64,000 bases of DNA from Dehalococcoidia bacterium (lineage in GTDB: Bacteria; Chloroflexota; Dehalococcoidia; Plut-88900), in the NCBI GenBank assembly GCA_965207225.1, contig CBDBLV010000003.1:128001-192000 (forward strand), written 5' to 3'. Below, one piece after another: positions 13,016-54,442 of the stretch. Under the pieces are notes generated by a model. That model ran no database searches and had not been told where the DNA came from. It worked only from the letters and a program-made list of their open reading frames with translations. Both the position numbers and the translations under genes were made by a program. Position 1 is the stretch's first letter. Each line of letters opens with the position of its first letter.

Positions 13016-13342
13016 TTAGCACTTATTGTATTGTATTAGGTATCCAAAGTCCATTGATATAGTGTATCTATTAATGATACTTCCTCTCTTTACAGTTCTT
13101 CGCTTCAATAAATCACAGTTCAGACAAACTCCCCCCCACCCATCCCCCTCCTCCCTAGTACTGAACTAGAGGCCGACGTGGGTGCGATGCGCCCACGTCG
13201 GCCTCTGTTCTTCTCTCCCCCTCTCCCTTAAAGACCCTAAGAGCCTGCCCCGAGTCCCTCGAGAGGGAGAGGGGGACCAAGGGGGTGAGGGTTCCCCTGG
13301 GGCCCCGGGGGGATATTCCCCCTCAAAGCCGCACATTTGCTC

Positions 13343-13371
13343 TTGACACACCTGTCCGACCGTACTATCAT
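13343..13371 (+). promoter_or_regulatory. sigma70-type promoter of composite element copy 1
   Basis: TTGACA-17-TATCAT, nearly identical to 33642-33670. Confidence 0.75.
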
Positions 13372-13560
13372 ATCCTGCGTTCGAACAAATATCTGATAAT
13401 CCAAGGAGGAACCACAACCCCTAGGGAAGCCCCGAGACCCGACCCAGGGGGCTCAACGCCCGGCCCACCCCAAAGGCCCTCGCGCAGGCCCGAGGCCCAA
13501 GCCAGAGACGTTGTCCCCTCACCACCGGGCCCCGTGCCCCTTCCCTACCTTACCCATCCA

Positions 13561-13870
13561 GGCGATGGAAGGTCCACAACATTAAGCGGCACGCTCCTCA
13601 TATAGGACCCTGCCGAAAAACCTCGGGCTATTACGCCCTTGGAAAAATCTCCCCCGTCGTTCCCCTCGGAGATTCCCCTTAACCCAGCGACGGCAGTGAG
13701 AAAACGTGTTCCCCGCCCCTCCGAGTGGGTCGAGCCAAACTGAAAAACTGGTGGTAGAGACGCCCTCTGGCGAGAACTCCTCGCTTGTCTGCCACGTCAC
13801 AACAGAAACACGGGGCTGAACCAGGCTGGCCTCCCGCCCCCTGAAACTGAGTCCCGGACCTTCCATCGCC
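13561..13870 (+). ncRNA. Putative structured RNA cassette, copy 1
   Basis: 15-bp perfect terminal IR GGCGATGGAAGGTCC/GGACCTTCCATCGCC, internal hairpins, core homologous to 39328-39681; no credible ORF. Confidence 0.55.
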
Positions 13871-14070
13871 GACCCAAAACCCAACAAACACAATGCAAAC
13901 CCAGACCCCACATCCGCATAACTCCTTCCTCCTCTCCAGTATTGAACTAGAGGCAGAGGTTGGCGCTGAAGCGCCCACCTCTGCCTCTGTTCTTCTCTCC
14001 CCCTCTCCCTTGAAGGCCCTAAGGGAGAGGGGGATCGAGGGGGAGAGGGTTTCCCTCCGTTTTTCCCTTT

Positions 14071-14130
14071 AGGCGTCATTCAATCAAAACAGCTACGAGT
14101 TCAATCAACGTTCAATCAATGTTCAATCAA
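14071..14130 (+). repeat. TTCAATCAA direct-repeat block (other copies 34547-34626, 38871-38932 minus)
   Basis: AGGCGTCxTTCAATCAAAxCAGCTACGAG(TTCAATCAAxG)n conserved at three loci. Confidence 0.85.
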
Positions 14131-14226
14131 AACTTCACCCCCCACCGATGCCCTTGACACTCGTTTCCCCTGACAATAACCTTGCCCCACACTTACACGC
14201 ATAACGACGCCCAGGAGCAACTAATC

Positions 14227-32096: not shown

Positions 32097-33479
32097 CTAG
32101 CCCCCCAACCTCGCCACCAGATAAGCCATATCCCGATCCCCCTTGATCCGGTTGCAATTCGGGCACAATAGCTGCAGATTGTCCGGGTGGTCCGACCCCC
32201 CACGACTCCTCGGCACCACGTGGTCCACCTCCATGATCCTGAACAGAAACTCCACCTTGCACCCCGCACACCTCCCCTCCTGCCGACCAAACAGCACGTG
32301 CTTCTGCTTCCGATACGGTATCGGCGCATCGATATCCGTCCGACGCGGGATGTCCGTCCGGGCCGTCACCAGCCGTTCATGGAACAGGTCTCCCATGAAC
32401 TCCCGCAGCCGCATGTTCACCAATTCGACAGCCTTCTCTGAGATATCGATCCCCACCCACTTCCTCCCCAGCTTCTCCGCCGCTACGCAAGCCGTCGCAC
32501 ACCCGCAAAACGGGTCCAGCACCACATCCCCCTCATTCGACGATGCTGAGATGATACGCTCCAACAGGGCGAGCGGCTTCTGGGTAGGGTAGCCTGTTCG
32601 CTCTTTTGCGTGGGGTTGGACAGGCCTTATATCTGTCCACTGATCTTGTAGAGGGACTCCGGGCATTTCATCGAGATACCGTTTGTATTGAGGCACAGCA
32701 CCTGGTTTAGTTTGGACTATGCGGCCCTCCTTAATGAGTTGTGCCATCCGTTCTTCACTGTATCGCCAATATCTGGTAACTCCCATTACCTCATATATGG
32801 GGTTGCCCTTTGCGGCCCCACCTGGCCCCGTTAAATCCCCTAACCGATATCTTCTGCCAGTTTCAGGCTCTACGTGACGATAGAAACGGTCTACATAGTC
32901 CTCGTCGTATTCGGTATAGAGTGGGTTCCACGTCCAGTTATTGCCATTAGAGTAGAAGAGCAGCGAGTCGCGTATGCGTCCGTGTTGTCGTCGGCCTTGC
33001 TTGGTGTCACTGTGGGCACTACTCCGTTTCCAAGATATGTCACTCAGGAAGTTCCTCATCCCAAATATCGAATCCATCAACAACTTCAGGTAGTGCCCCG
33101 CTGTAGGGTCGCAGTGCAGGTATATCGACCCCGTACCTTTCAACACCCGGCGCATCTCCAGCAGCCGCACCGCCATCATGCACAGGTAGGACTGCATCCC
33201 CTTTCCGTGCGTCAGCCTCGCCGTCTCTATCACCTTGTACATCGCCGGCTGCTCATCCGCTATCAGCCCCATCCACGCCGTGTCCAGGTCCGACAGCGTC
33301 CACGTGTCCTTGAACGCCGCCCCCGCCGCCCGCGACCCGACCGGCGCAGCATAGTTCCGGTTCGAATTGAACGGCGGATCGAGATATATCAAATCCACCG
33401 ACTCGGAGTTCAACCCCCTCAAAATATCGAGGTTGTCCCCCGTCCAGATCGTCTTGTCCACAAAATTCGCTTCAGCCAT
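32097..33479 (-). CDS. N6/N4 DNA methyltransferase (beta class) fused to C-terminal HNH endonuclease
   Basis: LIYLDPPF, YPTQKP, LDPFCGC; CxxC...DHVVPRSRGG...NLQLLCPNCNRIK. Confidence 0.92.
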   Translation of the reverse strand: MAEANFVDKTIWTGDNLDILRGLNSESVDLIYLDPPFNSNRNYAAPVGSRAAGAAFKDTWTLSDLDTAWMGLIADEQPAMYKVIETARLTHGKGMQSYLCMMAVRLLEMRRVLKGTGSIYLHCDPTAGHYLKLLMDSIFGMRNFLSDISWKRSSAHSDTKQGRRQHGRIRDSLLFYSNGNNWTWNPLYTEYDEDYVDRFYRHVEPETGRRYRLGDLTGPGGAAKGNPIYEVMGVTRYWRYSEERMAQLIKEGRIVQTKPGAVPQYKRYLDEMPGVPLQDQWTDIRPVQPHAKERTGYPTQKPLALLERIISASSNEGDVVLDPFCGCATACVAAEKLGRKWVGIDISEKAVELVNMRLREFMGDLFHERLVTARTDIPRRTDIDAPIPYRKQKHVLFGRQEGRCAGCKVEFLFRIMEVDHVVPRSRGGSDHPDNLQLLCPNCNRIKGDRDMAYLVARLGG

Positions 33480-33641
33480 GCCGTCCAGTTTACTGAAACA
33501 AGGCTATACCCTCAAAGCCCCTACCTCCCATCTTCCCCACCCCCGACCTGGAATCCATCCCTCCCTTCAAGAAATCAAAGTAATCCCTTAATCCCATAAA
33601 TCACAGTTCAGACATTCCCCAAAAAAGCCGCACATTTGCTC

Positions 33642-33670
33642 TTGACACACCTGTCCGATCGTACTATCAT
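33642..33670 (+). promoter_or_regulatory. sigma70-type promoter of composite element copy 2
   Basis: TTGACA-17-TATCAT. Confidence 0.75.
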
Positions 33671-33899
33671 ATCCTGCGTTCGATCGAACACTAACTCACA
33701 TCATCAAAGGAGGAACCAAAAACCCAGGGAAGCCCCGAGACCCGACCGAGGACTCAACGCCCTAGCCCATCCCAAGACCTCTCCCCTCTCTTGCAGGGGC
33801 GACCGGCCAATCGCCCCCCTCGCGAGACAGGCAGGTTGCGGCACAAGCGAACAGCGCCATCTCCTCACCACAGGCCCCGTGCCCCTTCCCTGACACCCA

Positions 33900-34204
33900 G
33901 GCGATGGAAAGACGTTCTGGCCTAAGCTGTTCCCGTTAGGCCTAACCCCGCATTAGCGGGCCCAGGCCTTGCCCCAGGCGCGTTGGTGGCGCGCCAAGTG
34001 GGCCGGCGCCGATATGGCGTCCGGCGGCAGTAACCTTTCGTTCCTGCTCACCACAGGAGCAGGTATGGCCGTGACCCAATTAAACACGGCTGATAGCATT
34101 TCATTCCTTCGGCCCCTGGGCCGGTGCGCCTCCCCTGGGCGCATGTCTAAAATCTGCCCGAATGGGAACAGGGGCACAGCCTCCGGCCAGCGTCTTCCAT
34201 CGCC
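33900..34204 (+). ncRNA. Putative structured RNA cassette, copy 2
   Basis: Long closing stem GGCGATGGAAAGACG..CTGGCC / GGCCAGCGTCTTCCATCGCC plus about seven internal hairpins. Confidence 0.55.
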
Positions 34205-34726
34205 GACCCAGAACCCAGTAGCCAGAACAAAATGAATACCCAACCCCCACAAACCAACAACCCAAAATCCCTCACCACCATTCCCGCTCTTTATATCGTC
34301 ATTCCCGAGGAAAGCCTGCCCCCGAGAAGTCGGGGGGGAATCCATCCCTCCGAAACAATCACCCACAACCCCGCAGTTCACCCCATCCCCTCCCTTCCTT
34401 ATCCGTCATTCCGGCCCCCGAGCCGGAATCCATCCCCGGTGCATGGGGTGAGGGTTCCGCCCTCCCGTTCCTTAAACAATCAAAGCCGTGCCTGAAACTG
34501 CAAAACAATCAAAGACCCGCCACGCGAAATCCCCAGAAATCCCTTCAGGCGTCATTCAATCAAAACAGCTACGAGTTCAATCAATGTTCAATCAAACTCA
34601 ATCATATTCAATCCACCTTCAATCATCTTTCCCGGTGGCAGGTCGGGCCCGTTCCCTCACGTTGACACCCGACACGGCGGAGCGATAGCATAGGCTCCTA
34701 CTCGATCCCCACCCACACCCACGGAG

Positions 34727-38818: not shown

Positions 38819-39327
38819 GGTCGGGGACCTCCTCCCTAGGGAGGGATTATACATGGGGTGGCTGTGGGGATTTTGATTGAATGTTGATTGAACATTGATT
38901 GAACTCGTAGCTGGTTTGATTGAACGACGCCTAGAGGGGTTTCTGGGGATTTCGCGTGTCACAGGGGGGAGGGCGACCCGCCGGTCGCCCCTACGGAGAG
39001 GGGATACCCCCAGCCCCACAGGGGAACCCTCTCCCCCTTGGTCCCCCTCTCCCTTAGGGCCTTTAAGGGAGAGGGGGAGAGAAAAACAGAGGGAGCCGTT
39101 GGCGCGCCTGCGCCAACGGCTCCCTCTAGTTTCATTACTGGGGAGAGGGAACAGGACACCACCCCAGATTCCTCGCAGGGCATCGGAATGACAGTGTGAG
39201 GGGCGTTGGTTGGTGGTTGCAGCACTGCGCCGTTCCGCTCTTGAGACCCTTCGACTACGCTCAGGGCGAGCGGAACCCCCACCCATAGGTTCCCGATCGG
39301 GGTCGGGAATGACGGGAAGGGGGTGTA

Positions 39328-39681
39328 GGCGATGGAAGGACCATGACCAGGGCGCAGGGGCCGGGGGGCCAAGCTGCGCCAGACCCGCAAGTCGGCAGGG
39401 CGAGAGGGAGTATCCCCTTGCGGCCTGTCCGTATGCGGGAAGCGCTCCATCATTCGGAGGGATGGGAGCGCAGACTCTTTACCGTCTCTGGGTGAATGGG
39501 AATCTCCGAGAGGAGAGACAGCGGAGTAGTCCCGGGGCGCGATGCCCTCGGGGGACCCGACAAAGTCGGGGTAGAGCCCCTCGCACATGGCGGGAGCTAG
39601 ACGCCCTGATGAGGGGGCGCAGCCGCGGGGTAGACCTGGAAGACAGGTGTGCCGCGGAGAGTCGATGGACCTTCCATCGCC
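39328..39681 (-). ncRNA. Putative structured RNA cassette, copy 3
   Basis: Terminal IR GGCGATGGAAGG(T/A)CCAT, core homologous to copy 1, downstream of a minus-strand promoter. Confidence 0.55.
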
Positions 39682-39840
39682 TGGAGGAAAGGGTGAGGGG
39701 AGGAGGCGCGTGTCGTAGGCCGGGCGGTCGCGCAGCGCCCGGGTGCGACGTGAGTTGATCAGGCTGGTGCGGCTCATAAACTCCTTATTCCTTTCCTGTG
39801 TGATGGGCTCCGAGGTACGAGGTCGGTGGCCCTGGGGAGT

Positions 39841-39869
39841 AGTATAGCACGGGGGTTCAGGTAGAGCAA
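39841..39869 (-). promoter_or_regulatory. Promoter of composite element copy 3
   Basis: Minus strand TTGCTC-17-TATACT with extended TG; shares GCACATTTGCTC with copies 1 and 2. Confidence 0.6.
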
Positions 39870-40297
39870 ATGTGCAGGTTTGGGGGGGATGCCCCTCAAC
39901 CCCACAGGGGAGCCCTCACTCCCTTGATCCCCTTCTCCTTTAAGGCCTATAAGGGAGAGGGGGAGGGAGGTAAAGGGCATGAGTGGGCAAATCCTAGATT
40001 CCTCGCGGGGCATCGGAATGACAGTGCAATGCGTGGGTTGGTAGAAGGCAGACGTGACAGGTTGGAGGGATGTGGGCCACCCCTCGCTCATACTTCGAGT
40101 AACCTCAGCATGAGCGGTCCCGCGCCGGGGAGGGCGACCACATAAGTTCATCCCTACAGTGGATTGTGACCCCGGCGGCCCCGCACCTGGGGAAGGGAAT
40201 CACCCACCCCACCACCCCGGGATTCCCGAGTAGTCGGGGATGACGAAGTGCAAAGGATGGATTCCGGGTCGGGAGCGGGATAACAGAGTAGGGAGGG

Positions 40298-43285: not shown

Positions 43286-44236
43286 ATGACCAGCAAGCCC
43301 CGTATGAAGTTCGGCGTGTCCCTGGGACAGGAGCGCGTTACGTGGCCCGAGATCGAGGAAGCGGCGCTTCTCGTGGAGGAGCTGGGCTTTGACTCTCTCT
43401 GGTCTCACGACCACCTGATACCCTCCGATCCCAGGCGAAACGAGGGGCCGTGCCTCGAAGCGTGGGCGATTCTCGGGGCGCTTGCGAGGATGACGAAGAG
43501 CGTGACCATCGGGCCGATGGTAGCGGGGAACACGTACCGCAACCCGGTGCTTCTAGCCAAGTCGGCCACTACCGTGGACATCATAAGCGGGGGTCGGCTG
43601 ATATTCGGGATCGGGGCGGGGTGGTTCGAGATGGAGCACACGGCCTACGATTTTCCCTTCTATACGGTCGGGGAGAGGATTCGCAGGCTGGACGAGGCCG
43701 TCGAGCTCATCAAGAAACTCTGGACCAACGACGGTCCCGTGGACTTTGCAGGCAAGTACTACAACCTGAGGAGCGCACCCTTCGACCCCCGGCCGATCCA
43801 GCAGCCCCATCCCCCTATCCTTATAGCCGGCGGCGGAGAGAAGCGTACGCTGCGGGTCACGGCAAAGTGGGGGGACATGATGAATATCAACGGCCACGCT
43901 CAGATTGCGGCCCATAAATACCGGGTACTGGAAGAACACTGCCAGGCTGTCGGGAGGGACCCCGCCGAGATAGTTAAGACCGCCAACGGGGCCTTTGTGC
44001 CCCCCGAGAAGATGGACGACTGGAACCGCTGGATGGACCATCTCGCCGAGACCATGCCCGATCAAAGGAAATCACGGGGTGAGGGCGGGGTGGTGGGAGA
44101 CATGGATGCGATCAGGGACTGGGTGAGGGGTCACGTGGAGGTCGGCACCCAGCAGGTAATCTTCACCATGCGCTCTCCGTACCCCCTGGAGTCGCTGAGG
44201 ACATTTGCGAAGAAAGTGATGCCGGAATTCAGATAG
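43286..44236 (+). CDS. LLM class flavin/F420-dependent oxidoreductase
   Basis: GFDSLWSHDH, YRNPVLLAK, SGGRLIFGIGAGW, AGGGEK. Confidence 0.94.
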   Translation: MTSKPRMKFGVSLGQERVTWPEIEEAALLVEELGFDSLWSHDHLIPSDPRRNEGPCLEAWAILGALARMTKSVTIGPMVAGNTYRNPVLLAKSATTVDIISGGRLIFGIGAGWFEMEHTAYDFPFYTVGERIRRLDEAVELIKKLWTNDGPVDFAGKYYNLRSAPFDPRPIQQPHPPILIAGGGEKRTLRVTAKWGDMMNINGHAQIAAHKYRVLEEHCQAVGRDPAEIVKTANGAFVPPEKMDDWNRWMDHLAETMPDQRKSRGEGGVVGDMDAIRDWVRGHVEVGTQQVIFTMRSPYPLESLRTFAKKVMPEFR

Positions 44237-44246
44237 GAGAAGCGAC

Positions 44247-45410
44247 ATGGCAGCGCCAAGGGACATTCCCTTCCCCATAGAGGAGTACAGGGCCCGACTC
44301 TCGGGCGTCCAGGAGCGGATGCGCTCCCGGGACATTGATCTTCTGCTGGCGTACACGCCGGAGAACATCAACTACCTGACCGGCTACAACACCACGGGAT
44401 ATTATGTCTACCAGTGCCTGATGGTGCCCGCCGACCGGGACCCGATCATGGTGACCCGGGAACTGGAGAAGGATAACGTCACCATGGGCACGTGGCTCGA
44501 GGACTACCGCATCTTCGGGGACTCCGAGGACCCAGTGGCAACAACCTGCGACGCCATCAAAGAGTTCGGGTATGCGGAGAAGCGGATCGGCTTTGAGTCC
44601 ACGTCCTGGTTCCTGCAGCTGCGGGACTACCAGCAGACCGTGTCCCTCCTCCCGGATGCCGAGGTCAAGGATGGCGGCAACATCGTAGAGGAAAGCCGGG
44701 TCATCAAGTCGCCTCGGGAAATTGCGTGCATAAGGGAGGCCGCGCGGATAGTTGCCAAGGGGATGCAATCGGGGATTGACGCTTCGAGGCCGGGGGTCAC
44801 CGACAACTACGTGGCCGGAGAGCTTACCCGCACCCTCTACGCCGAGGGCAGCATCTACTTTGCGGGGCAGCCATACGTGGCTTCCGGTAAGCGGACGGGG
44901 CGGGGCCACATCACCTTCGCCAACGTCATGCTGGAGCCCGGCGATCCCGTGTTTTTCGAGATCTCCGCCAACGTCAACCGGTACAGCGCCTCCCTTATGC
45001 GCACCATATCCCTCGGCCCACCCGACGACATGGTGAAGAGCCTCGCCGAAGCCTCCATCGCAGGCCTTACGGCCGCCGTTGAAAATATGGGCCCAGGCAT
45101 GACCTCCCATGACGCCGACGCATTCTGCCGTGACGCCATTACCAAGGCCGGGCACGGAGAGCTCTTCAATCACCGCACTGGCTATTCCATAGGGGTCGGG
45201 TATCCGCCGGGGTGGGGCGAGGGTCACATCATGGACATCAAACCCGGGGACCAACGGGTGCTCAAACCCGGCATGACCTTCCACCTCACACCCGCGATCA
45301 TTGTCCCCGGGGTAGCCGGGCCCGGTTTCAGCGAGACTATCTTGATCACCGATGACGGTGCGGAGGTCCTCACCAGTTTCCCCAGGGAGTTCCTTGTCAA
45401 AGAGGTCTAA
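44247..45410 (+). CDS. M24 Xaa-Pro peptidase family, creatinase/ectoine hydrolase-like
   Basis: EEYRARL, NINYLTGY, IKSPREI, HRTGYSIG, PGMTFH, SET. Confidence 0.88.
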   Translation: MAAPRDIPFPIEEYRARLSGVQERMRSRDIDLLLAYTPENINYLTGYNTTGYYVYQCLMVPADRDPIMVTRELEKDNVTMGTWLEDYRIFGDSEDPVATTCDAIKEFGYAEKRIGFESTSWFLQLRDYQQTVSLLPDAEVKDGGNIVEESRVIKSPREIACIREAARIVAKGMQSGIDASRPGVTDNYVAGELTRTLYAEGSIYFAGQPYVASGKRTGRGHITFANVMLEPGDPVFFEISANVNRYSASLMRTISLGPPDDMVKSLAEASIAGLTAAVENMGPGMTSHDADAFCRDAITKAGHGELFNHRTGYSIGVGYPPGWGEGHIMDIKPGDQRVLKPGMTFHLTPAIIVPGVAGPGFSETILITDDGAEVLTSFPREFLVKEV

Positions 45411-45440
45411 CCCCATCCCCGATACAGGGACTCCGACACC

Positions 45441-46391
45441 ATGATATCCAATCGACGTATGGAGTTCGGGGGGATGGTCAGCGCGGCAAACGTCTCCTGG
45501 CCCGAGTTCCGCAGCATGTGCGAGACAGTCGAGGCCGTGGGCTTCGACCACCTGTGGGTCGCAGACCTCCTGACTCCCTCGGAAGCTGACTGGTCGGACG
45601 GGCTCGTTCACGAATGCTGGAGCCTTTTGTCTGCCGCAGCTTCGTTTACGGACCGCATCCGCATCGGGCCCCTGGTCGTATCCAACACCTACCGACACCC
45701 GGTTGTATCGGCCAAGATCGCCGCCACTGTGGACATCATGAGCGAGGGCAGGCTGACCTACGGGGTCGGGGCGGGGTGGGCTCAAGAAGAGCACCGTTCC
45801 TACGGCATACCCTTCCAGCCCATCGGGGAACGCGTGGCCCGAGTCGAAGAAGCCATACAGCTGACCAAGCTCCTATGGCAGTCTCCCGACCCCGTAACGT
45901 TCCACGGACGCTACTACACCCTGGAAAACGCTCCGTTCAACCCCAAGCCCGTGCAGAAGCCTCACCCGCCCATCATGATCGCAGGCGGAGGGGAGAAGCT
46001 GACCCTCCGCGCCGTGGCCCGACACGCAGATGAGATGAACGTATACGGCAGCCCCGAGGAGGTTGCCCACAAGTTCGACGTTCTGCGGAAACACTGTAAG
46101 AACGAAGGCCGCGACTTCGATGAAATCAAGAAGACGGTGCTGGTGCAGATGGTGCCCCCGGAGCGACAGAAAGAATGGGACGAATTCCTGGCGAAAATTG
46201 CCGCCGAAGAACCCGAGCCGCTCAATCGGGGCCAGAGCCAGGCTATGACCGGAGACGTGGACGACTGGAAGGAGTGGGTGCAGGCAAGGGCTGAGGTGGG
46301 CGTCGACCAGGTGATAATCAACCTCTTTGCGCCCTATCTGCATGATGCGGTGGAACGCTTTGCTAAAGAGGTGATTCCGACTTTCCAGTAG
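45441..46391 (+). CDS. LLM class oxidoreductase
   Basis: GFDHLWVAD, YRHP, GRLTYGVGAGW, PKPVQKPHPP. Confidence 0.93.
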   Translation: MISNRRMEFGGMVSAANVSWPEFRSMCETVEAVGFDHLWVADLLTPSEADWSDGLVHECWSLLSAAASFTDRIRIGPLVVSNTYRHPVVSAKIAATVDIMSEGRLTYGVGAGWAQEEHRSYGIPFQPIGERVARVEEAIQLTKLLWQSPDPVTFHGRYYTLENAPFNPKPVQKPHPPIMIAGGGEKLTLRAVARHADEMNVYGSPEEVAHKFDVLRKHCKNEGRDFDEIKKTVLVQMVPPERQKEWDEFLAKIAAEEPEPLNRGQSQAMTGDVDDWKEWVQARAEVGVDQVIINLFAPYLHDAVERFAKEVIPTFQ

Positions 46392-46410
46392 AATGGGCTT
46401 CCTGCCTACG

Positions 46411-46434
46411 AGGGCGACCGGCGGGTCGCCCCTA
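46411..46434. repeat. REP-like palindrome GGGCGACCGGCGGGTCGCCCCTAC (also near 33797-33817 and 38971-38994)
   Basis: Three related palindromes in intergenic DNA. Confidence 0.7.
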
Positions 46435-46466
46435 CAAGTCCAGAAGGGATTCGGAGGAAACGACAC

Positions 46467-47396
46467 ATGACAAAGGTGAAGTTCGGGCCCATCTACACCC
46501 GCATCGAAGACCTGATGGGCCCCGTGGAGCTGGCGGAGAAATCCGAGTCCTGGGGCTACGATTCCTTCTGGGTCCCCGATTACATCCTCAAGCCCCGCCT
46601 CGACGCCCTAATCATCCTTGCCGCCGCGGCCCAGCGCACCTCCACGATAGAGCTGGGCACCGCCGTCATGGTGCTTCCCTACAAAGACCCCCTTGTCCTC
46701 TCCAAGTCGGCGCTTTCGGTGGACGTGCTTTCCAATGGGCGGCTGTTACTGGGGGTGGGGATCGGGGCCAACCCCCGGGAGTTTGATGTCCTAGGATTGG
46801 ATATCAAGTACAGAGGTCGGGTCTCCGACGAACGGCTGGACATCATGTCCCGCATCCTGAACGGCGAGACTGTAACTCACCACGGCCGCTTCCACTCCTT
46901 CGAGGACGTTGCCATAGGCCCGCCGTCAGTGAGCCAGCCCCGGATCCCGATATGGCTCGGGGCCCATTGCGGGGGCGGCTGGGCCGAGGGAGCGTTACGG
47001 CGCACGGGCCGGTACGGCGACGGGTTCATCCCGACCGAGGCCAGTATCGAGCAGTACAAGGACGCCATGGACCGCATCTCCCGCCATGCGGAGGAGGCGG
47101 GCCGAGACCCGACCCAGATCGAATGGGGCATCTTCATCTTCATCATCATGGAAGACTCCCGTGAGTACGCTGAGCGGAAGGGTTATGCGGAGCTGGCTGA
47201 CAGGCTGGACCGGGACTACCCGCTGGTGCACGGTCGGGCGGCGGCTGCGGGGACCGTCGACGAGTGCATAGAGGCTATCCAGGCTTACGTGGACATCGGG
47301 GTCACGCACTTCATCCTGGACTCGGCATCCCCAGCAGAGGAGATTGTCGAGCAGTACGAACGGGCGGCAAAGGAGATAGTGCCCCACTTCCGCTAG
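46467..47396 (+). CDS. LLM class oxidoreductase
   Basis: GYDSFWVPD, LGTAV, SNGRLLLGVGIG. Confidence 0.93.
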   Translation: MTKVKFGPIYTRIEDLMGPVELAEKSESWGYDSFWVPDYILKPRLDALIILAAAAQRTSTIELGTAVMVLPYKDPLVLSKSALSVDVLSNGRLLLGVGIGANPREFDVLGLDIKYRGRVSDERLDIMSRILNGETVTHHGRFHSFEDVAIGPPSVSQPRIPIWLGAHCGGGWAEGALRRTGRYGDGFIPTEASIEQYKDAMDRISRHAEEAGRDPTQIEWGIFIFIIMEDSREYAERKGYAELADRLDRDYPLVHGRAAAAGTVDECIEAIQAYVDIGVTHFILDSASPAEEIVEQYERAAKEIVPHFR

Positions 47397-47443
47397 GCCT
47401 ACAGAGGTCGCGCATTGCGGAATTCCCCAGGAGCCTGGGAGGA

Positions 47444-48379
47444 TCAGGCCGAGGGCTTGATCCCCCTCACCAAAGGCAAAACTTCCTGGGCGAACCGCTC
47501 ATACTGCTCCATCATCCGTTCAGGCATGATCCCCGCGTTCATCACGAAGTGCGTGACCCCAGCATCCACGTACTCCTGGATCCCTTCCGCACAGTCATCC
47601 GCCCGACCCGACACGTTCGCCTCCCCACGCACCGCCTTCGTATGACTCCTCCGACGGTTCGATTCCGCCTCCAGCGTTTCCCATGCCCTCTCGGCATCGT
47701 CGTCCAAGCAGAACCAGAGCACGGTGCCGAACTCGATGGCGTCGGGGTCCCGTCTCGCGCCCCGGGCGTAAACCTTCACCTTTTCCCGCACCGACTTGTA
47801 TTCTGATGCGGGGACCAGGGTTGGAACGAAACCATCCGCCATTCTGCCAGCCCTCACGATTGTTGACTCTACCAACCCGTTCTTCCACAGCGGGCCCGTC
47901 CAGATCGGGGGGTGTGGCTTCTGTGCGGTCTCCGGCCCGACATCTACTCCGTCGAATTGGTGGTACTTCCCCTTATGAGAGACCTTCTCCCCGGACAGGA
48001 GCTTCCGCAACAGCATGAGCTTTTCATCCGCCATCTTCCCGCGTTCATGGATGTCGAGGCCCAGGGCGTCGAACTCTCTCTTGTTGCTCCCCACCCCCAG
48101 CCCCAGGATGAGACGACCGTTGGTCAGTGCATCCACCGTCGCCGCCGCTTTGGCCAACAGCAGCGGATGCCTGTACGGGAGCACCATCACCGCGGTCCCG
48201 AGCAGAATGCGCTGCGTCCTCTGGGAGGCAGCAGCCAGAAGGGGCAAGGGGTCGGGGGAGTCTCCCAGGGCGAAGTCGGTCGTCCAGAAGGAATCGAAGC
48301 CTGAGGCCTCGGCGCGGACGGCCATGTCCACGGCCTCGGTCGGGTCGTTTATGTGGGAGTGCATTATCCCGAATTTCAT
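47444..48379 (-). CDS. LLM class oxidoreductase
   Basis: GFDSFWTTD, YRHPLLLAK, NGRLILGLGVG; start MKFG at 48379. Confidence 0.92.
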   Translation of the reverse strand: MKFGIMHSHINDPTEAVDMAVRAEASGFDSFWTTDFALGDSPDPLPLLAAASQRTQRILLGTAVMVLPYRHPLLLAKAAATVDALTNGRLILGLGVGSNKREFDALGLDIHERGKMADEKLMLLRKLLSGEKVSHKGKYHQFDGVDVGPETAQKPHPPIWTGPLWKNGLVESTIVRAGRMADGFVPTLVPASEYKSVREKVKVYARGARRDPDAIEFGTVLWFCLDDDAERAWETLEAESNRRRSHTKAVRGEANVSGRADDCAEGIQEYVDAGVTHFVMNAGIMPERMMEQYERFAQEVLPLVRGIKPSA

Positions 48380-48407
48380 GTCAGCAGTGTCCCGTCCCAA
48401 AGAAAGA

Positions 48408-48438
48408 TAAAGGGTTGGCATCGAATGCCAACCCTTTA
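48408..48438 (-). terminator. Hairpin, probable intrinsic terminator after the aminotransferase
   Basis: TAAAGGGTTGGCAT-CGA-ATGCCAACCCTTTA with T-rich flank on the minus strand. Confidence 0.7.
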
Positions 48439-48479
48439 CTTCTTATCAGCAAATCTAAGCTATTTTCGGTCCTCTACCC

Positions 48480-49643
48480 CTACAGGTTCGCCACGAATTT
48501 TCGTATGCCCTCGACACCCTTCTCCAGGTTCTCCATGCTTGTGGCGAAGGATATCCGTACGAACCCTTCGCCGTACGCCCCGAAGGAGATGCCCGGGAGC
48601 ACCGCCACCCCGTTTTCGTAGAGCAGCCGGTCGCCGAACTCCTGCGCCGAAAGCCCCAGGTCAGACACATTCGGGAACAGGTAGAAGGCGCCCTCGGGCT
48701 TGAAGCAGCGAATGCCGTCGATCTCGTTCAGGGCGTCGCAGGTCATGTCTCTGCGCCGTCGGAACTCGGCCACCATTGCCTGGGGCTCTTCCTTTGACCC
48801 CTCCAGGGCCGCAATCCCCGCCTTCTGCACAAAGGGGGCCGTACAGGAGACGCTGTTAACCATCAGCTTGGAAATATGGGGCACCAACTCCGAGGGGAAC
48901 ACCCCGTACCCGAGCCTCCAGCCCGTCATGGCATAGGTCTTGGAAAAACCGTCCAGTATTACGGAGTGTTCCAGCATCCCGGGCAGCTGGGCGATGCTGG
49001 TGTGGGTGCTGTCGTAGACGATGTCCCTGTACATCTCGTCGGAGAGGACCAGGATGTCGTTCTCCCTGGCCATTTCGGCGACGGCCTCCAGGTCCTCCCT
49101 GTCCATCATCCCTCCCGTCGGGTTGTGGGGAGAGTTGAGGATGATCAGCCGGGTGCGGGAAGTTATAGAGCGCCTCACCTCGTCGAGGTCGGGCTTGAAG
49201 CCTTCCTCTTCATACAGCCGCATGGGTACGGGCGTCGCCCCCGAGAATTTGATCATCGACTCATATATCGGGAACCCGGGGTTCGGGTATATGACCTCGT
49301 CGCCCTCTTCGACCAGAGCAGTGAGGAGGAAGTACATAATCGGCTTGGCGCCGGGAGTGACGATAATAGAGTCGGGGGAAACGTCGATGCCGCGGGTCTC
49401 GGATGTGTGTTTCGCCACCGCCGCCCGGACGTCGGGGAGGCCGGCGGCGGGGCCGTAGTGAGTGAAGCCTCCGTCGAGAGCGTCCTTGGCTGCTCCGATG
49501 ATGTGGTCCGGCGTATCAAAGTCGGGTTCGCCCAGCTCCAGGTGCACGACATCGACACCTGTGGCGGCCAGCGCATTGGCCTTGACCAGGACCTCGAACG
49601 CGGTCTCTGTGCCCAGGTTGCTCATTCTCGAGGCCAGTTTCAT
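48480..49643 (-). CDS. Class I PLP-dependent aminotransferase (aspartate aminotransferase-like)
   Basis: [40 protein letters not shown]. Confidence 0.95.
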
Positions 49644-49776
49644 TTTCGGTGCTCCTCCCGGGACGCAATTGCCAGAAATTACAGGCGGTAATTATATCAC
49701 GGCCACGGTTACATCCATTCGGGCTTTCAGCTAGAATGAACCCCGACTCCCTACAGTACCCGAAGAGGTTTGCGCC

Positions 49777-50721
49777 ATGCCCAAAGTCGAATTCGGCCCC
49801 CTTTACACCACCATGGAGAAATACATCGGCCCGGTGGAGTTCGCCGAAAAGGCCGAAGCCTGGGGCTACGACTACTACTGGGTGCCCGACTACGTCACGC
49901 TTAGCCCGATGGACGCCTTTGTTCTGCTGTCGGCGGTGGGACAGAGGACCACGTCCATCAAGTTGGGTACCGCTGTTGTGGTCGTGCCGTTCAGGACGCC
50001 CTTCCAGCTGGCGAAGGCCTCGGCGACGGTGGACGTGTTGTCGGGAGGGCGGTTCACCCTGGGGGTGGGGATTGGGGGGGCCGTGCCCCGAGACTTTGAT
50101 GTCGCCCAGGTCGACATGCGAAAGCGCGGGCGCATCTCCAACGAGACCCTCCACATTACGCGACGCCTCCTCACCGAAGAGAACGTCAGCCACCGCGGCC
50201 ATTACTATTCATTCGACGACCTTACAATCGAGCCAAGGCCCGTCAGCGACACTGGCATCCCCATCTGGATCGGCTCAATCTGCAACAATGGCTTCCCCCA
50301 GGGCGTCGTGGACCGGGCTGCACGCTATGGCGACGGCTTCTACCCCACCGACACCCCAATCGAAGAGTTCAAGAAGGTCCAGGAGCGCATCCGGTCCAAG
50401 GCGAAGGAGATGGGTCGGGACCCGGACTCCATCCAGTGGGGGCTGCTGGCCTGGACTTGTGGTGGTGGTTCCAAGGAGGAGGCTCGGCAGACGGCGAGCC
50501 GTGAGATAAGCAAGCGGCTGGAGTCGGAGTGGGACGTCCAGGCGGAGAATGGCTACATCCTGGGCACCCCCGAGGAGATGGCCGAGACCCTGCAGGGCTA
50601 CGTCGATATCGGGGTCACCAATTTCGTCGTGGACCCGGCCTGTGCCCCCGAGGACATGCTCGAAATGTTCGAGGTCTTCGCGAAAGAGGTGGTGCCTCAC
50701 TTCAGGGGCGAAGACAGCTGA
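49777..50721 (+). CDS. LLM class oxidoreductase
   Basis: GYDYYWVPD, SGGRFTLGVGIG, PRPV..IPIWIG. Confidence 0.93.
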   Translation: MPKVEFGPLYTTMEKYIGPVEFAEKAEAWGYDYYWVPDYVTLSPMDAFVLLSAVGQRTTSIKLGTAVVVVPFRTPFQLAKASATVDVLSGGRFTLGVGIGGAVPRDFDVAQVDMRKRGRISNETLHITRRLLTEENVSHRGHYYSFDDLTIEPRPVSDTGIPIWIGSICNNGFPQGVVDRAARYGDGFYPTDTPIEEFKKVQERIRSKAKEMGRDPDSIQWGLLAWTCGGGSKEEARQTASREISKRLESEWDVQAENGYILGTPEEMAETLQGYVDIGVTNFVVDPACAPEDMLEMFEVFAKEVVPHFRGEDS

Positions 50722-51671
50722 TGAGCGAATTGGGATTCGGGGTCACCCTGTTCGACGCGAATGAACGGCCAGTCATCAAGCAGGGTGTCGATGCCGAGGC
50801 CTGGAACTACTCCATCTTCTGGGCCCCCGAGTTCCTAGGTATCCCCACCCTGGAGCCCTTTCCCGTCCTCTCAGCAGTAGCACAGCACACAACCAGCATC
50901 AGGCTCGGCACCGGAATAGCGGGGCTGTCCGTCCGCAGCCCCGTCCAGATGGCCAAGGCCGCCGTCACCACGGACATCCTTTCCAACGGTCGGTTTGTCC
51001 TGGGGCTGGGGTTGGGGGGCCTTATTCCCAAAGACCTGGAGGTGGAGAACGTACCCAGCCTGGGGGAACGAGGCCGCATCTCCAACGAACGGCTCGAAAT
51101 CCTTTACCGTCTCTTCACAGAGCGCACCATCTCCCATTCCGGCGACTACTACAACTTCAAGGACTACACGTTTGGGCCGGGGCCCGTGCAGAAGCCACGC
51201 ATACCAATCTGGCTCGGGGCACGGTACACGGGCAAGATCGCCGATGCCGCCATGAAGCGGGCCGGGACCTACGCCGACGTGTTCATCTTCCCCGCCGATA
51301 CCCCCACAACCTACTATCCCTACGCCAAGGACAAGGTCCGGGCCTACGCGGAGGCGGCGGGTCGGGACCCGGAGGCCATAGGGTTCGCCAGCACGATGTG
51401 GACGTGCCTAGGATCAACTCGGGAGCGGGCCATAGATGTGGCGAACCGTATAATCCCGGAGATGCTCAGCGTGCCCTGGAAGGTGCCAGACAACGCCTGT
51501 TACGGAATGGGTACGCCTGAAGACTGCATCGCGACGGCGGAGGAATTCAAAGACCTGGGAGTCTCCCACATCATCATGAACCCCTGCTGTGATTACGAAG
51601 AGGTCACAGCTCAGACCGAGCGGTTCGGGCGTGAGGTAGTCCCGCACTTCCAGACTAAAGGCGCTAGATGA
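50721..51671 (+). CDS. LLM class oxidoreductase
   Basis: Start MSELGFG coupled to the previous stop (TGATG); FWAPE, SNGRFVLGLG. Confidence 0.92.
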   Translation: MSELGFGVTLFDANERPVIKQGVDAEAWNYSIFWAPEFLGIPTLEPFPVLSAVAQHTTSIRLGTGIAGLSVRSPVQMAKAAVTTDILSNGRFVLGLGLGGLIPKDLEVENVPSLGERGRISNERLEILYRLFTERTISHSGDYYNFKDYTFGPGPVQKPRIPIWLGARYTGKIADAAMKRAGTYADVFIFPADTPTTYYPYAKDKVRAYAEAAGRDPEAIGFASTMWTCLGSTRERAIDVANRIIPEMLSVPWKVPDNACYGMGTPEDCIATAEEFKDLGVSHIIMNPCCDYEEVTAQTERFGREVVPHFQTKGAR

Positions 51672-52612
51672 GCCCAATGCAATTCGGCGTAACCCATACG
51701 AGGTCCGAGGAACGGACTGCTGTCCAGCAGGGTGTCGATGCCGAGAATTGGGGGTTCTCCATATTCTGGGCCCCGGAGTTCCTCGCCATCCCCACACTGG
51801 AGCCCTTCGCCGTTCTTTCCGCGGTAGCACAGCACACCGCCTCCATCAGGTTAGGCACCGGGGTGGCAGGGCTGGCCCTCAGAAGCCCCTTCCAGCTGGC
51901 CAAGGCCGCCATCACCACCGACATTCTTTCCAACGGACGGTTGGTGCTGGGGCTCGGTCTCGGAGGCGTGCATCCCAAGGACCTGGAAGTCGAGGGCATA
52001 CCGAACCTGCGGGAGCGGGGCCGCATCTCCGACGAACGTCTCGAAATCCTCTACCGGCTTTTCACTGAGAAGAACGTCTCCCACTCCGACGAGTACTACC
52101 AGTTCGAGGACTTCACCCTCACCCCCGACCCCGTGCAGAAACCCCACGTGCCCATCTGGGTCGGGGCACGGTGGTCGGGCAAGATCTTCGACGCCGCCCT
52201 GAAGCGCGCCGGGACCTACGCCGATGTCTTCATCTTCCCCGCCGACACCCCAACGGACTACTACCCGGGCGCCAAGGAGAAAATCAGCAAGTACGCCGAA
52301 GCTGCAGGCCGGGACCCGGGCGATATCCGTTACGCCTCGACTATCTGGACATGCCTCGCCTCATCGCGGGAAGAAGCAAAGGCCATTGCCAACCGTGAGA
52401 TTACCCGTTCGCTGCAAGTCCCCTGGGTGGTCCCCGACAACGCCTGCTACGGGCTCGGCACGCCGGAGGACTGCATAGCCACCGTGGAGGAATTCGCAGA
52501 CCTCGGCGTATCCCACCTACTCCTGGCGCCCTGCTGTGAACCCGCAGAAACCACGGCACAGACCGAGCAGTTCGGCCGCGAAGTCGTATCCCATTTCAAA
52601 GGTGTTGAGTAA
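51668..52612 (+). CDS. LLM class oxidoreductase, close paralog of the preceding gene
   Basis: FWAPE, SNGRLVLGLG, PVQKPHVPIW; ATGA overlap. Confidence 0.93.
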   Translation: MSPMQFGVTHTRSEERTAVQQGVDAENWGFSIFWAPEFLAIPTLEPFAVLSAVAQHTASIRLGTGVAGLALRSPFQLAKAAITTDILSNGRLVLGLGLGGVHPKDLEVEGIPNLRERGRISDERLEILYRLFTEKNVSHSDEYYQFEDFTLTPDPVQKPHVPIWVGARWSGKIFDAALKRAGTYADVFIFPADTPTDYYPGAKEKISKYAEAAGRDPGDIRYASTIWTCLASSREEAKAIANREITRSLQVPWVVPDNACYGLGTPEDCIATVEEFADLGVSHLLLAPCCEPAETTAQTEQFGREVVSHFKGVE

Positions 52613-53541
52613 TGAGCAAACTGCAGTTCGGACCCCTCTTTTTCCCCACCGAAGAAGGCCCCGAGGCCCTGGAACTCGCCAAAATGGCCGACGATCTCGG
52701 CTACGACTACTTCTGGGTGCCTGACTACGTGACCCTCCCTTATTTGGACGCCTTCGTGCTCCTGGCTGCCGCGGCCCGGGAGACCAAGAATGTGAGACTT
52801 GGGACAGCGGTGACCCTGGCCCCGTTCCGGTCGCCCTTCCAGATGTTCAAGGATGCGGCCTCGGTTGACGTGCTTTCGGACGGGAGGCTGACGCTGGGCG
52901 TGGGTATCGGCGCAGTGGCCCGAGACTTTGAGATCGCCCAGGTCGACTTCCGTAAGCGGGGCCGCATCTCTGACGAGTACATCGACATCACCCGACGTCT
53001 TCTCGCCGAGGAGCACGTGGACTACGACGGCGAGTTTTACAGCTTCCGCGACCTGACCATGGGCCCCAGGCCCGTGCAGAAGCCCGTCCCCATCTGGATT
53101 GGCGCGAATGGCCAGAACGGCTTTCCCCCGGGCGTGCTGCGCAGGGCCGGACGGCTGGGCGACGGCTTTTTCCCCACAGAGACTCCGGTCAAGACCTTCA
53201 CGGAGGCCCAAGCCAGCATCCAGGAGCACGCCGAGGCCGTGGGTCGGGACCCCGACGCCATCGGCTGGGGACTGCTCACCTGGAGCGCCCTGGCCGACAA
53301 CCGGGAAGAGGGGGTCAGGACAGCTGAAAGGGAGATCGGGGCCCGGCTGAACAAGGTACACACGGTGAACCCGGATGCCGGGTACGCCGTCGGGCGGCCG
53401 GAGGACATGATCGAGACCATCGAGTCCTTCGCCGAAATTGGCGTGACCAACTTTGTCATAGACCCTGGCTGCCACCCCCGCGACATCCGCACCCTTGTCG
53501 AGACCTTCGCCAAAGAGGTCATGCCCCATTTCCGCGACTAG
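52612..53541 (+). CDS. LLM class oxidoreductase
   Basis: GYDYFWVPD, SDGRLTLGVGIG; TAATG overlap. Confidence 0.93.
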   Translation: MSKLQFGPLFFPTEEGPEALELAKMADDLGYDYFWVPDYVTLPYLDAFVLLAAAARETKNVRLGTAVTLAPFRSPFQMFKDAASVDVLSDGRLTLGVGIGAVARDFEIAQVDFRKRGRISDEYIDITRRLLAEEHVDYDGEFYSFRDLTMGPRPVQKPVPIWIGANGQNGFPPGVLRRAGRLGDGFFPTETPVKTFTEAQASIQEHAEAVGRDPDAIGWGLLTWSALADNREEGVRTAEREIGARLNKVHTVNPDAGYAVGRPEDMIETIESFAEIGVTNFVIDPGCHPRDIRTLVETFAKEVMPHFRD

Positions 53542-54442
53542 GCCGATGATTCGAGCCAAAGGAGACTGACATGGCCCTGAAAATAGGCATCCACGCTGGT
53601 CCGCAGGACTGCTCCTACGAAGACCTGAAACGGCTGTGGCACATGGCCGACTCCTCGGGGTTTTACTGGGTCTCGGTCTGGGACCACTTCTACGAGACCC
53701 CGGTTATCGACGGCAAGGGCCCCTGCTTCGAGGCCGTGTCCATCATGACCGCCCTGGCTGCAGAGACCAAGAACGTACGGGTAGGGTGCCTGGTATTCTG
53801 CGTCGGGACCCGGAACCCGGGCTTGCTGGCTAAAGCTGCAGTCACTATCGACCACGTCAGCAACGGGCGGCTGGAGCTGGGCATCGGGTACGGGCCCTGG
53901 GGTCCGGAATACGTTGCCTACGGGCTCGACCTACCCACCATGAAGACCCAGATGGACATCCTAGAGGAATCTGCGCAGATCACCCGCTCCATGCTCCACA
54001 ACGGGACAACCAGTTTCCAAGGTAAGCACTTCCAGATCGAGAACGCCCACGTATACCCCCGACCCGTCCAGGACCCCCCGAGGCTCTGGATAGCGGGCAT
54101 AGGTGAAAGGCGCATTCTGCCGATGGTCGCTCGCTACGCCGACGGCTGGAACGCCACATACATCCCCGACGCCGCCTTCAAGTCCAAGAACGAACTCTTG
54201 AACAGGCTTTGCGAAGAAGGGGGTCGGGACCCGGCGGAGATCGCCCGTACCTGCAACGTCGGCTTCTACATGGGCGCCGACCAGAAGGCCGCTGAGCGAA
54301 AGCGTCGGGAGTTCGAGGAGAAGTGGGGTAGGGGGGAGGCGGGACCCGACGACGCGAAATACGACAAGGACCGGGACTACCTCTCGGAATTCGAACAGGG
54401 GATGATCTTCGGCACTGCCCAGAACGCCATAGAGCGGCTCGG

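Follow-up and report, generated by a model that had tools for sequence, protein, structure and literature searches.

Among dispersed bacterial repeats built from modules, the closest described systems are BOX elements, which follow a boxA-boxB(n)-boxC layout, and the BIME/REP mosaics of enterobacteria. The cassettes described here come from a Dehalococcoidia genome, and three copies of them lie in the stretch of DNA that was analysed, which is 64 kb long and is referred to as the window. Set against the account of BOX elements in Streptococcus pneumoniae (PMC3049150), they resemble BOX and BIME in being dispersed, mostly intergenic, restricted to a species group, variable in their module combinations and strongly folded if transcribed. 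They differ in scale and content. BOX and BIME units measure roughly 100–300 nt, draw on a few fixed module types and have no promoter of their own, whereas the cassettes are 600–900 nt long, start from a near-consensus promoter and hold at least 15 unrelated cores of 200–550 nt within one invariant helix.

Integron gene cassettes are exchangeable payloads whose attC sites are conserved and imperfectly palindromic. Exchangeable payloads and a conserved boundary also characterise the present elements. Unlike integron cassettes, however, they are dispersed singly rather than arrayed beside an integrase, their payloads are non-coding, their boundary is a 10-bp inverted repeat and their break points vary. 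A third comparison is with promoter-bearing MITEs, such as the Correia elements of Neisseria, and with REPINs, which are mobilised by RAYTs. The likeness here lies in terminal inverted repeats, high copy number and placement next to genes; the difference lies in the lack of target-site duplications, empty sites and a RAYT, and in the unrelated interiors found within the same ends.

The processing stalks of rRNA operons, which are cut by RNase III, provide a parallel at the RNA level. Both systems combine a promoter, a leader and a long-range helix joining the flanks of a large structured RNA, which in the cassettes is predicted. In contrast to rRNA stalks, the cassettes number about 50 copies with differing contents, and their frame appears by eye to be unrelated to the genome's own 16S promoter and leader. 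Derivation from an rRNA leader was rejected on this visual comparison, since the promoter of the 16S gene is of another kind and its leader is short and lacks GGCGATGGAA, the sequence that bounds the cassette cores. OLE, GOLLD, ROOL, HEARO/omega RNA and raiA are similar to the cores in length, at several hundred nucleotides, and in being densely packed with conserved hairpins while showing no coding signal, but each of these families has one fold, whereas in the cassettes a single frame takes folds that can be exchanged.

No description of the family was found in the literature on repeats and structured RNAs of Dehalococcoidia and Chloroflexota. The Chloroflexota cluster of one preprint is a period-8 array, unlike the cassettes. 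Rfam 15 gave no match at the gathering score in the window, with sub-threshold chance matches around copies 1 and 2. Across 12 loci with other core classes, the only Rfam match at E ≤ 0.01 was a 24-bit match outside the cassette.

In general layout, a cassette starts with a sigma-70 promoter and an SD-like tag, continues with a leader hairpin that holds nested inserts and with a helix-closed multi-hairpin core, and ends in a CA-rich trailer. In copy 2, all of these lie on the plus strand. The promoter (33642..33670) consists of TTGACA, a 17-nt spacer and TATCAT, agrees with the consensus at 11 of 12 positions and belongs to a block that is 91% identical to positions 13312–13389 and has 18 copies in the genome. 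An AAGGAGG tag (33707..33713) resembles a Shine–Dalgarno sequence and has no start codon downstream. This tag is mostly unpaired in the fold predicted for the full transcript and is present in nearly all of the 60 listed promoter-bearing cassettes, a few of which have one base changed. The leader (33726..33891) is a hairpin closed by AGGGAAG/CTTCCCT that carries a long (‘X’) core insert, and it forms a separate domain in the predicted fold.

The core of copy 2 is enclosed by a helix whose 5' strand (33900..33922) joins the universal GGCGATGGAA to a class-specific extension, AGACGTTCTGGCC, and whose 3' strand (34185..34204) consists of GGCCAGCGTC and TTCCATCGCC. The enclosed core (33923..34184), assigned to class I6, has an inner stem, CTGTTCCCGT/ATGGGAACAG, and about eight hairpins. 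Downstream, the CA-rich trailer (34205..34262, beginning GACCCAGAACCCAG) is predicted to be nearly unstructured. The stalk feature was tested by folding: a 20-pair helix closes the core both in the single-sequence fold and in the alignment fold, where 100% of its cells are paired, and GGCGAUGGAA/UUCCAUCGCC are the strands of this putative processing stalk. The minimum-free-energy fold of positions 33897–34207 reaches −162.1 kcal/mol (z = −6.29, with none of 100 shuffles as good). All six hairpins that an earlier note on this DNA had listed for a multi-hairpin fold are present in it. For the whole unit of 586 nt, the predicted fold has two helix-closed domains, separate from each other, and leaves the 5' and 3' ends unpaired.

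Pfam matches identify the genes beside copy 2 as a DNA methylase–HNH gene and a pair of ChsH2-like and thiolase-like genes. The latter pair, downstream of the cassette, has its own promoter (34662..34691, plus strand), which agrees with the consensus at 10 of 12 positions. An array of TTCAATCAA (34550..34630, plus strand) lies between the cassette and this promoter. There are 39 arrays of this type in the genome, 23 of them downstream of a cassette on the same strand.

The 10-mer GGCGATGGAA occurs at six exact sites in the window, which form three inverted pairs (13561/13861, 33900/34195 and 39328/39672), the reverse complement lying 305–354 nt on. Copy 1, on the plus strand, has a TTGACA ... 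TATCAT promoter (13343..13371), a leader domain with a short (‘Y’) core (13423..13546) and a 310-nt helix-closed core with a GGTCC/GGACC stem extension (13561..13870). This core belongs to class I1, which has 20 members, and folds with a z score of −4.75. Copies 1 and 2 align from about 13313 and 33613 as far as GGCGATGGAA, a stretch that takes in the promoter and both the 5' and the 3' part of the leader. The alignment resumes at TTCCATCGCCGACCCA for about 50 nt, with nothing convincing in between. The claim that these two copies have a common promoter, leader and trailer was thus right for the promoter, the ends of the leader, the 10-nt inverted repeat GGCGATGGAA/TTCCATCGCC and the trailer. 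It failed for the middle of the leader, which is a replaced segment (138 nt vs 174 nt in copies 1 and 2). The interior of copy 2 had also been described as dissimilar to that of copy 1, and profile HMMs of classes I1 and I6 indeed give no match at E ≤ 10 in either direction. The copy 2 interior is thus not a detectable diverged homolog of the copy 1 interior.

Copy 3, on the minus strand, had been said to carry the copy 1 interior. This is mostly wrong, as about a third of it aligns. Between the two cores, BLAST finds a 45-nt piece (82% identity), a 20-nt stem and a 63-nt 3' piece (71%) and nothing more. The 354-nt helix-closed core of copy 3 (39328..39681) belongs to a class of its own, I7, whose relation to class I1 is only partial (profile E values of 2e-11 to 2e-14), and it sits within an open frame (38959–39777) that has no family match. 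On the same strand, positions 39682..39875 hold a leader and a promoter-like region of a different type, ACATTTGC...TGCTATACT, picked out by eye, so that a promoter may be present in the upstream region of this copy as well.

Across the genome that holds the window (G000; 4.03 Mb in 5 contigs), 55 forward and 50 reverse sites of the 10-mer form 36 exact inverted pairs with a spacing of 305–553 nt, where less than one pair is expected by chance from the observed site counts. The use of junction profiles brings the number of cassettes to 48, in which the inverted repeat is perfect over its 10 nt in 36 and has one or two mismatches in the 12 others. They occur singly, dispersed over all five contigs. 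One cassette lies about 1.75 kb upstream of the 16S gene; the stretch read before the 16S contains a coding region.

The cassette family was found in 9 of the 41 genomes searched: G000 and all eight others of its genus. It had no matches in the three genomes of other genera of the same taxonomic family or in the 29 genomes from other families of the class. Copy 1, used as a query, gives about 20 matches in each of the eight other genus genomes, and one of these, G005, has 65 sites with the junction pattern vs 4 for a control pattern. Among the species genomes scanned, an exact 22-mer from the frame occurs at 39 places in five Dehalococcoidia MAG chromosomes and in no others, and a 26-mer from the copy 2 core occurs at five places in one record. 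Neither was present in the metagenome contigs scanned. The copy 2 core is found at high identity in contigs from three other sequencing runs.

The 94 cassettes analysed comprise all 48 from G000, 40 from G005 and 6 from G008. Those of G005 are distinct cassettes drawn from 47 loci, made up of 40 of the 65 pattern sites and seven further loci. The 94 fall into 15 core classes of 198–553 nt, which profile comparison gathers into four loose superfamilies whose common segments are only partial. Full-length cores of the copy 2 class, I6, are confined to G000 (two) and G005 (five) among the nine genus genomes. In the closing helix, a universal 10-bp part is followed by either a GGTCC... or an AGACG... 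extension, which tracks the core; the first 9 bp of the helix are invariant in sequence, with no covariation. The leader hairpin has a frame of 51–53 nt that grows to as much as 224 nt through nested inserts, several of which are small CCCCGAG..TCGGGG hairpins. The copy 2 class has no BLAST matches outside cassettes, and core classes were never seen without the frame.

Several observations bear on whether the cassettes act as RNA. The promoter is on the same strand as the cassette. In the copy 2 class, 17 of 200 paired alignment columns are variable, compared with 34 of 108 unpaired columns (Fisher p = 6e-7). Variable pairs remain paired in 13 of 17 cases on the plus strand, vs 8 of 18 in the fold predicted for the minus strand. 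Double compensatory changes are lacking in all 100 pairs of the copy 2 class alignment, for which the shuffle control was uninformative, and the single-sequence fold of copy 2 favours neither strand (z = −6.29 and −6.28). Because the pairing evidence is mixed and includes no double compensatory change, the case for a plus-strand RNA structure in the copy 2 class is suggestive rather than decisive.

A protein-coding origin was also considered and rejected. No open frame is consistent across the members of classes I1 and I6, to which copies 1 and 2 belong. The 39 stop-free frames of the three copies have no Pfam matches other than one chance match (E = 0.29), and no PHROGs matches; the open frame P0001 likewise had no match. 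The class of copy 3 does keep a long open frame, of 200–247 codons. A six-frame search of the whole genome with four terminase Pfam families gave no matches; as it missed even the real terminase, it is a weak test.

The modules of a cassette do not travel together. The earlier note had proposed a test for incongruent pairing of leaders and interiors, and such pairing is present: 11 of the 14 core classes with several members occur with at least two leader types. Leader types and core classes yield 44 four-gamete combinations. The seven cores of the copy 2 class are 90–100% identical, yet they are found with five leader types.

The promoters point the same way. The promoter test covered the 49 cassettes of the common promoter type (18 from G000 and 31 from G005) and left out the other 39 from these genomes, which have another promoter type or none recognised by the pattern. 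Promoters of cassettes that share a core class in different genomes have an identity of 0.715 (58 pairs), whereas those of different classes in the same genome have an identity of 0.869 (546 pairs). Promoters therefore group by genome and not by core class, and core class has no effect at the promoter. The cores themselves are well conserved between G000 and G005, at 0.82–0.91 identity within a class for the eight classes with at least three cross-genome pairs, except for I8 at 0.64.

A third line of evidence comes from fixed loci in related genomes. At the copy 2 locus, upstream of a gene of the thiolase operon, six of the nine genus genomes have a cassette, and these represent four core classes: I6 in G000, I5 in G008, I9 in G002, G003 and G004, and an I14-like core in G006. 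A cassette is also present in six of nine genomes at the copy 1 locus, where five classes occur. The same number applies at the copy 3 locus, with class I7 in G000, G008 and G001; the cores of G002, G003 and G004 are of another kind or have no match. Each of the three loci lacks a cassette in three of the nine genomes, and these differences in presence indicate that whole-cassette gain or loss also occurs.

The clearest pair at the copy 2 locus is G003 and G006. Their upstream promoter and leader are 99% covered at 87% identity and their downstream spacer is 99% covered at 94% identity. The collinear stretch takes in about 470 nt on the upstream side, with a leader of the same type, and all 202 nt on the downstream side, and there is no alignment between the cores. 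The two sequences cease to match 20 nt into the 5' helix strand, and the match returns for the last 15 nt of the 3' strand. This core-only replacement is seen in G003/G006, G002/G006 and G004/G006, which together represent one event, G006 against the rest. At the copy 3 locus, G003 and G004 similarly have collinear flanks and unalignable cores. Between G000 and G008, similarity carries on into the core for about 45 and 57 nt, and these outer 45 and 57 nt are common to the copy 2 class and I5. Core swapping is real, as evidenced by the non-co-segregation of modules, the grouping of promoters by genome and the presence of different cores at fixed loci.

With modular anatomy, incongruence between modules, the replacement of cores at fixed loci and a strand bias in the conservation of pairing all observed, the cassettes are probably a genus-restricted family of stand-alone structured non-coding RNA genes, in which a constant frame holds cores that are re-assorted, likely by homologous recombination or gene conversion. 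The frame consists of the sigma-70 promoter, the 5' SD-like tag, the leader hairpin, the invariant closing helix and the CA-rich trailer. It has two helix-closed variable slots, one for the leader core with its nested small hairpins and one for the core of 200–550 nt, of which there are at least 15 classes. Cores, leader cores and promoter variants are re-assorted among about 50 dispersed copies, probably by recombination or conversion with end points within the conserved frame, and such end points would make similarity break at the closing helix. The exchange may be of the RecA type. By analogy with rRNA operons, the helix may persist because the RNA depends on it, perhaps as a stalk that protects the ends or serves RNase III-type processing, and the SD-like tag may stabilise the 5' end of the RNA.

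The positions of the break points favour homologous recombination over a site-specific reaction, since they vary between events and flank–core linkage weakens with distance. The association between flank and stem superclass is 0.073 in the 10-nt linker, at positions −10 to −1 (none of 200 shuffles reaches this value), 0.042 at −30 to −11 (1 of 200) and 0.009 at −50 to −31 (8 of 200), as calculated from ungapped comparisons of 87 of the 94 cassettes, class I7 being left out, and with copies that are related and not independent. RecA is present in the genome. Counting against homologous exchange, the homology arms beside the core are short, at about 45 nt and 30 nt. These results also divide the proposal that GGCGATGGAA is a module boundary. 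They support the closing helix as the boundary of an exchangeable RNA module; they give no support to the 10-mer itself as a recombination or processing site, and the deeper break points in G000/G008 and the decay of linkage point to ordinary homologous exchange within the frame.

Site-specific mobility is the alternative that fares best, although it is unlikely. Cores would then be non-autonomous, MITE-like or hairpin-ended elements with a 10–15-bp terminal inverted repeat recognised by a trans-acting enzyme, and they would enter a fixed site in the frame or displace the core already there. The 10-nt repeat is perfect and conserved in sequence across classes and genomes while the cores it encloses are unrelated, as such a system would have it, and the sharp junctions in G003/G006 and the absence of core classes (the copy 2 class, by BLAST) from outside the frame agree with it. 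The invariance of the first 9 bp of the helix means that pairing alone is insufficient, and it fits a DNA-level site as well as a sequence-specific reader. Against these points, G000 contains no empty frames and no short inverted-repeat pairs, target-site duplications are lacking and the flanks are constant (...CCA and GAC...). The event-to-event variation in break points and the fall in flank–core linkage with distance speak against a fixed site too, and core classes have partial internal segments in common, which marks them as mosaics rather than discrete elements. A Y1/RAYT-type transposase was also sought: the Y1 (HUH) transposase profile PF01797 had no matches in the 12 genomes of the taxonomic family, while the control search matched 6 of 14 known genomes. 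The genome has four reverse transcriptase genes, and nothing ties them to the cassettes.

It is quite unlikely that there is no core-only exchange at all, and that whole cassettes are instead lost and re-inserted at the same gene promoters while frames are homogenised within each genome. Under such turnover, the three genomes in nine without a cassette at each locus would be expected, as would the two groups of cassette–gene distances (about 360–560 nt vs 93–270 nt) and the different upstream neighbours in G000 and G008. It is less easily reconciled with G003 and G006, which are collinear up to and including the leader type around cores that cannot be aligned, or with G003 and G004, which show the same at the copy 3 locus; different cores between matching flanks and leader inserts are thus seen once per clade. 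Moreover, homogenisation of frames would itself amount to recombination between frame and core.

Divergence in place, with cores as fast-evolving homologs inside a frame that is merely better conserved, is highly improbable. The partial profile matches within four loose superfamilies, and the outer 45 and 57 nt common to the copy 2 class and I5, could be taken as traces of such descent. However, same-class cores are 0.82–0.91 identical between G000 and G005 when promoters are only 0.715 identical, classes I1 and I6 have no profile match at E ≤ 10, and unalignable cores lie between flanks of 87–94% identity. An assembly artefact, in which repeated frames led assemblers to join cores to the wrong loci, is hardly credible: short-read contigs from four runs do all break within the frame, and none spans a cassette, but the assemblies of six genus genomes out of nine each consist of one contig of about 3.0–3.4 Mb, that of G000 has five contigs and several are labelled chromosome-level, which suggests long-read assemblies, and G002, G003 and G004 independently have the same class at the same locus.

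On the favoured reading of re-assorted non-coding RNA genes, about 1% of these genomes is taken up by some 50 strongly promoted genes for predicted large folded RNAs that belong to no described family. If the RNAs are made, they would represent a natural modular RNA architecture with insulating helices. The family would also provide a natural experiment on how domains are acquired, lost and swapped by structured RNAs, set in an abundant lineage of uncultured symbionts. Comparative data already supply datable swap events at fixed loci. A bolder and rather doubtful reading treats the frame as a chassis dedicated to expression and maturation, which a sequence-specific factor would read, with the approximately 15 cores as a shuffled library of functionally distinct RNAs. 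Such a factor is suggested because the sequence of the helix is invariant, beyond what mere pairing would call for. If this reading is true, the cassettes would do at the RNA level what gene-cassette systems do, and exchange at the helix might have a mechanism of its own.

The three cassettes of the window are each followed by a short array of the unit TTCAATCAA, repeated three to six times and lying between the cassette and the promoter of the next gene. These arrays occupy window positions 14070-14135 (copy 1), 34550-34630 (copy 2) and, on the minus strand, 38865-38925 (copy 3). Across the source genome (G000), 39 such arrays were found, of which 23 come after a cassette of the same orientation at a distance of no more than 1.6 kb; conversely, 23 of the 48 cassettes have an array after them. 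The arrays could be binding sites, acting at the level of either DNA or RNA.

Other repeats occur in and around the cassettes. Copy 1 is flanked on both sides (13160-13205 and 13946-13990) by a long GC-rich hairpin, followed by TGTTCTTCT and then a GGGAGAGGGGGA.. repeat, and these hairpins look like the terminators of yet another repeat family. Small CCCCGAG..TCGGGG hairpins, some of them nested, were observed both in free intergenic DNA, as at 34300-34345, and as inserts within cassette leaders. Their presence in both settings suggests that they form a small repeat family of their own, one that either targets the hairpin loops or is tolerated by them.

The gene divergent from copy 2 (32097-33479, minus strand) encodes an N6/N4 DNA methylase with a fused C-terminal HNH endonuclease domain, and is missing at the corresponding position in the same-genus relative G008. 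Elsewhere in the window, a run of paralogous genes (43500-54300), spaced at ~947 nt or ~3.3 kb, appears as the repeat families D1, D2 and D6-D9. Judged by eye, these paralogues look like luciferase-like oxidoreductases, which are expected in SAR202-type Dehalococcoidia. Beyond the window, the single 16S rRNA gene of the source genome (C4:510741-512337) has a cassette of core class I1, the class of copy 1, ~1.75 kb upstream on the same strand (G000:C4:508630-508984). Ahead of the 16S promoter, the sequence that was read has the look of a coding region.

Within the source genome, some cassettes of core classes I1 and I2 are headed by a second type of promoter and 5' region, …TTGAGCTTTATATTTGTTCTAAGTCTAGACCCGAC…AAGGAGG, as at C5:1035910(-), C1:175967(+) and C3:346060(-). 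The promoter itself is thus an exchangeable module. Class I2 cores of 538-553 nt (G000:C5:737824-738376 and C5:783499-784036) have an internal domain of ~85 nt repeated three times in tandem, where the 461-nt members of the class have it twice; cores therefore also grow via internal duplication.
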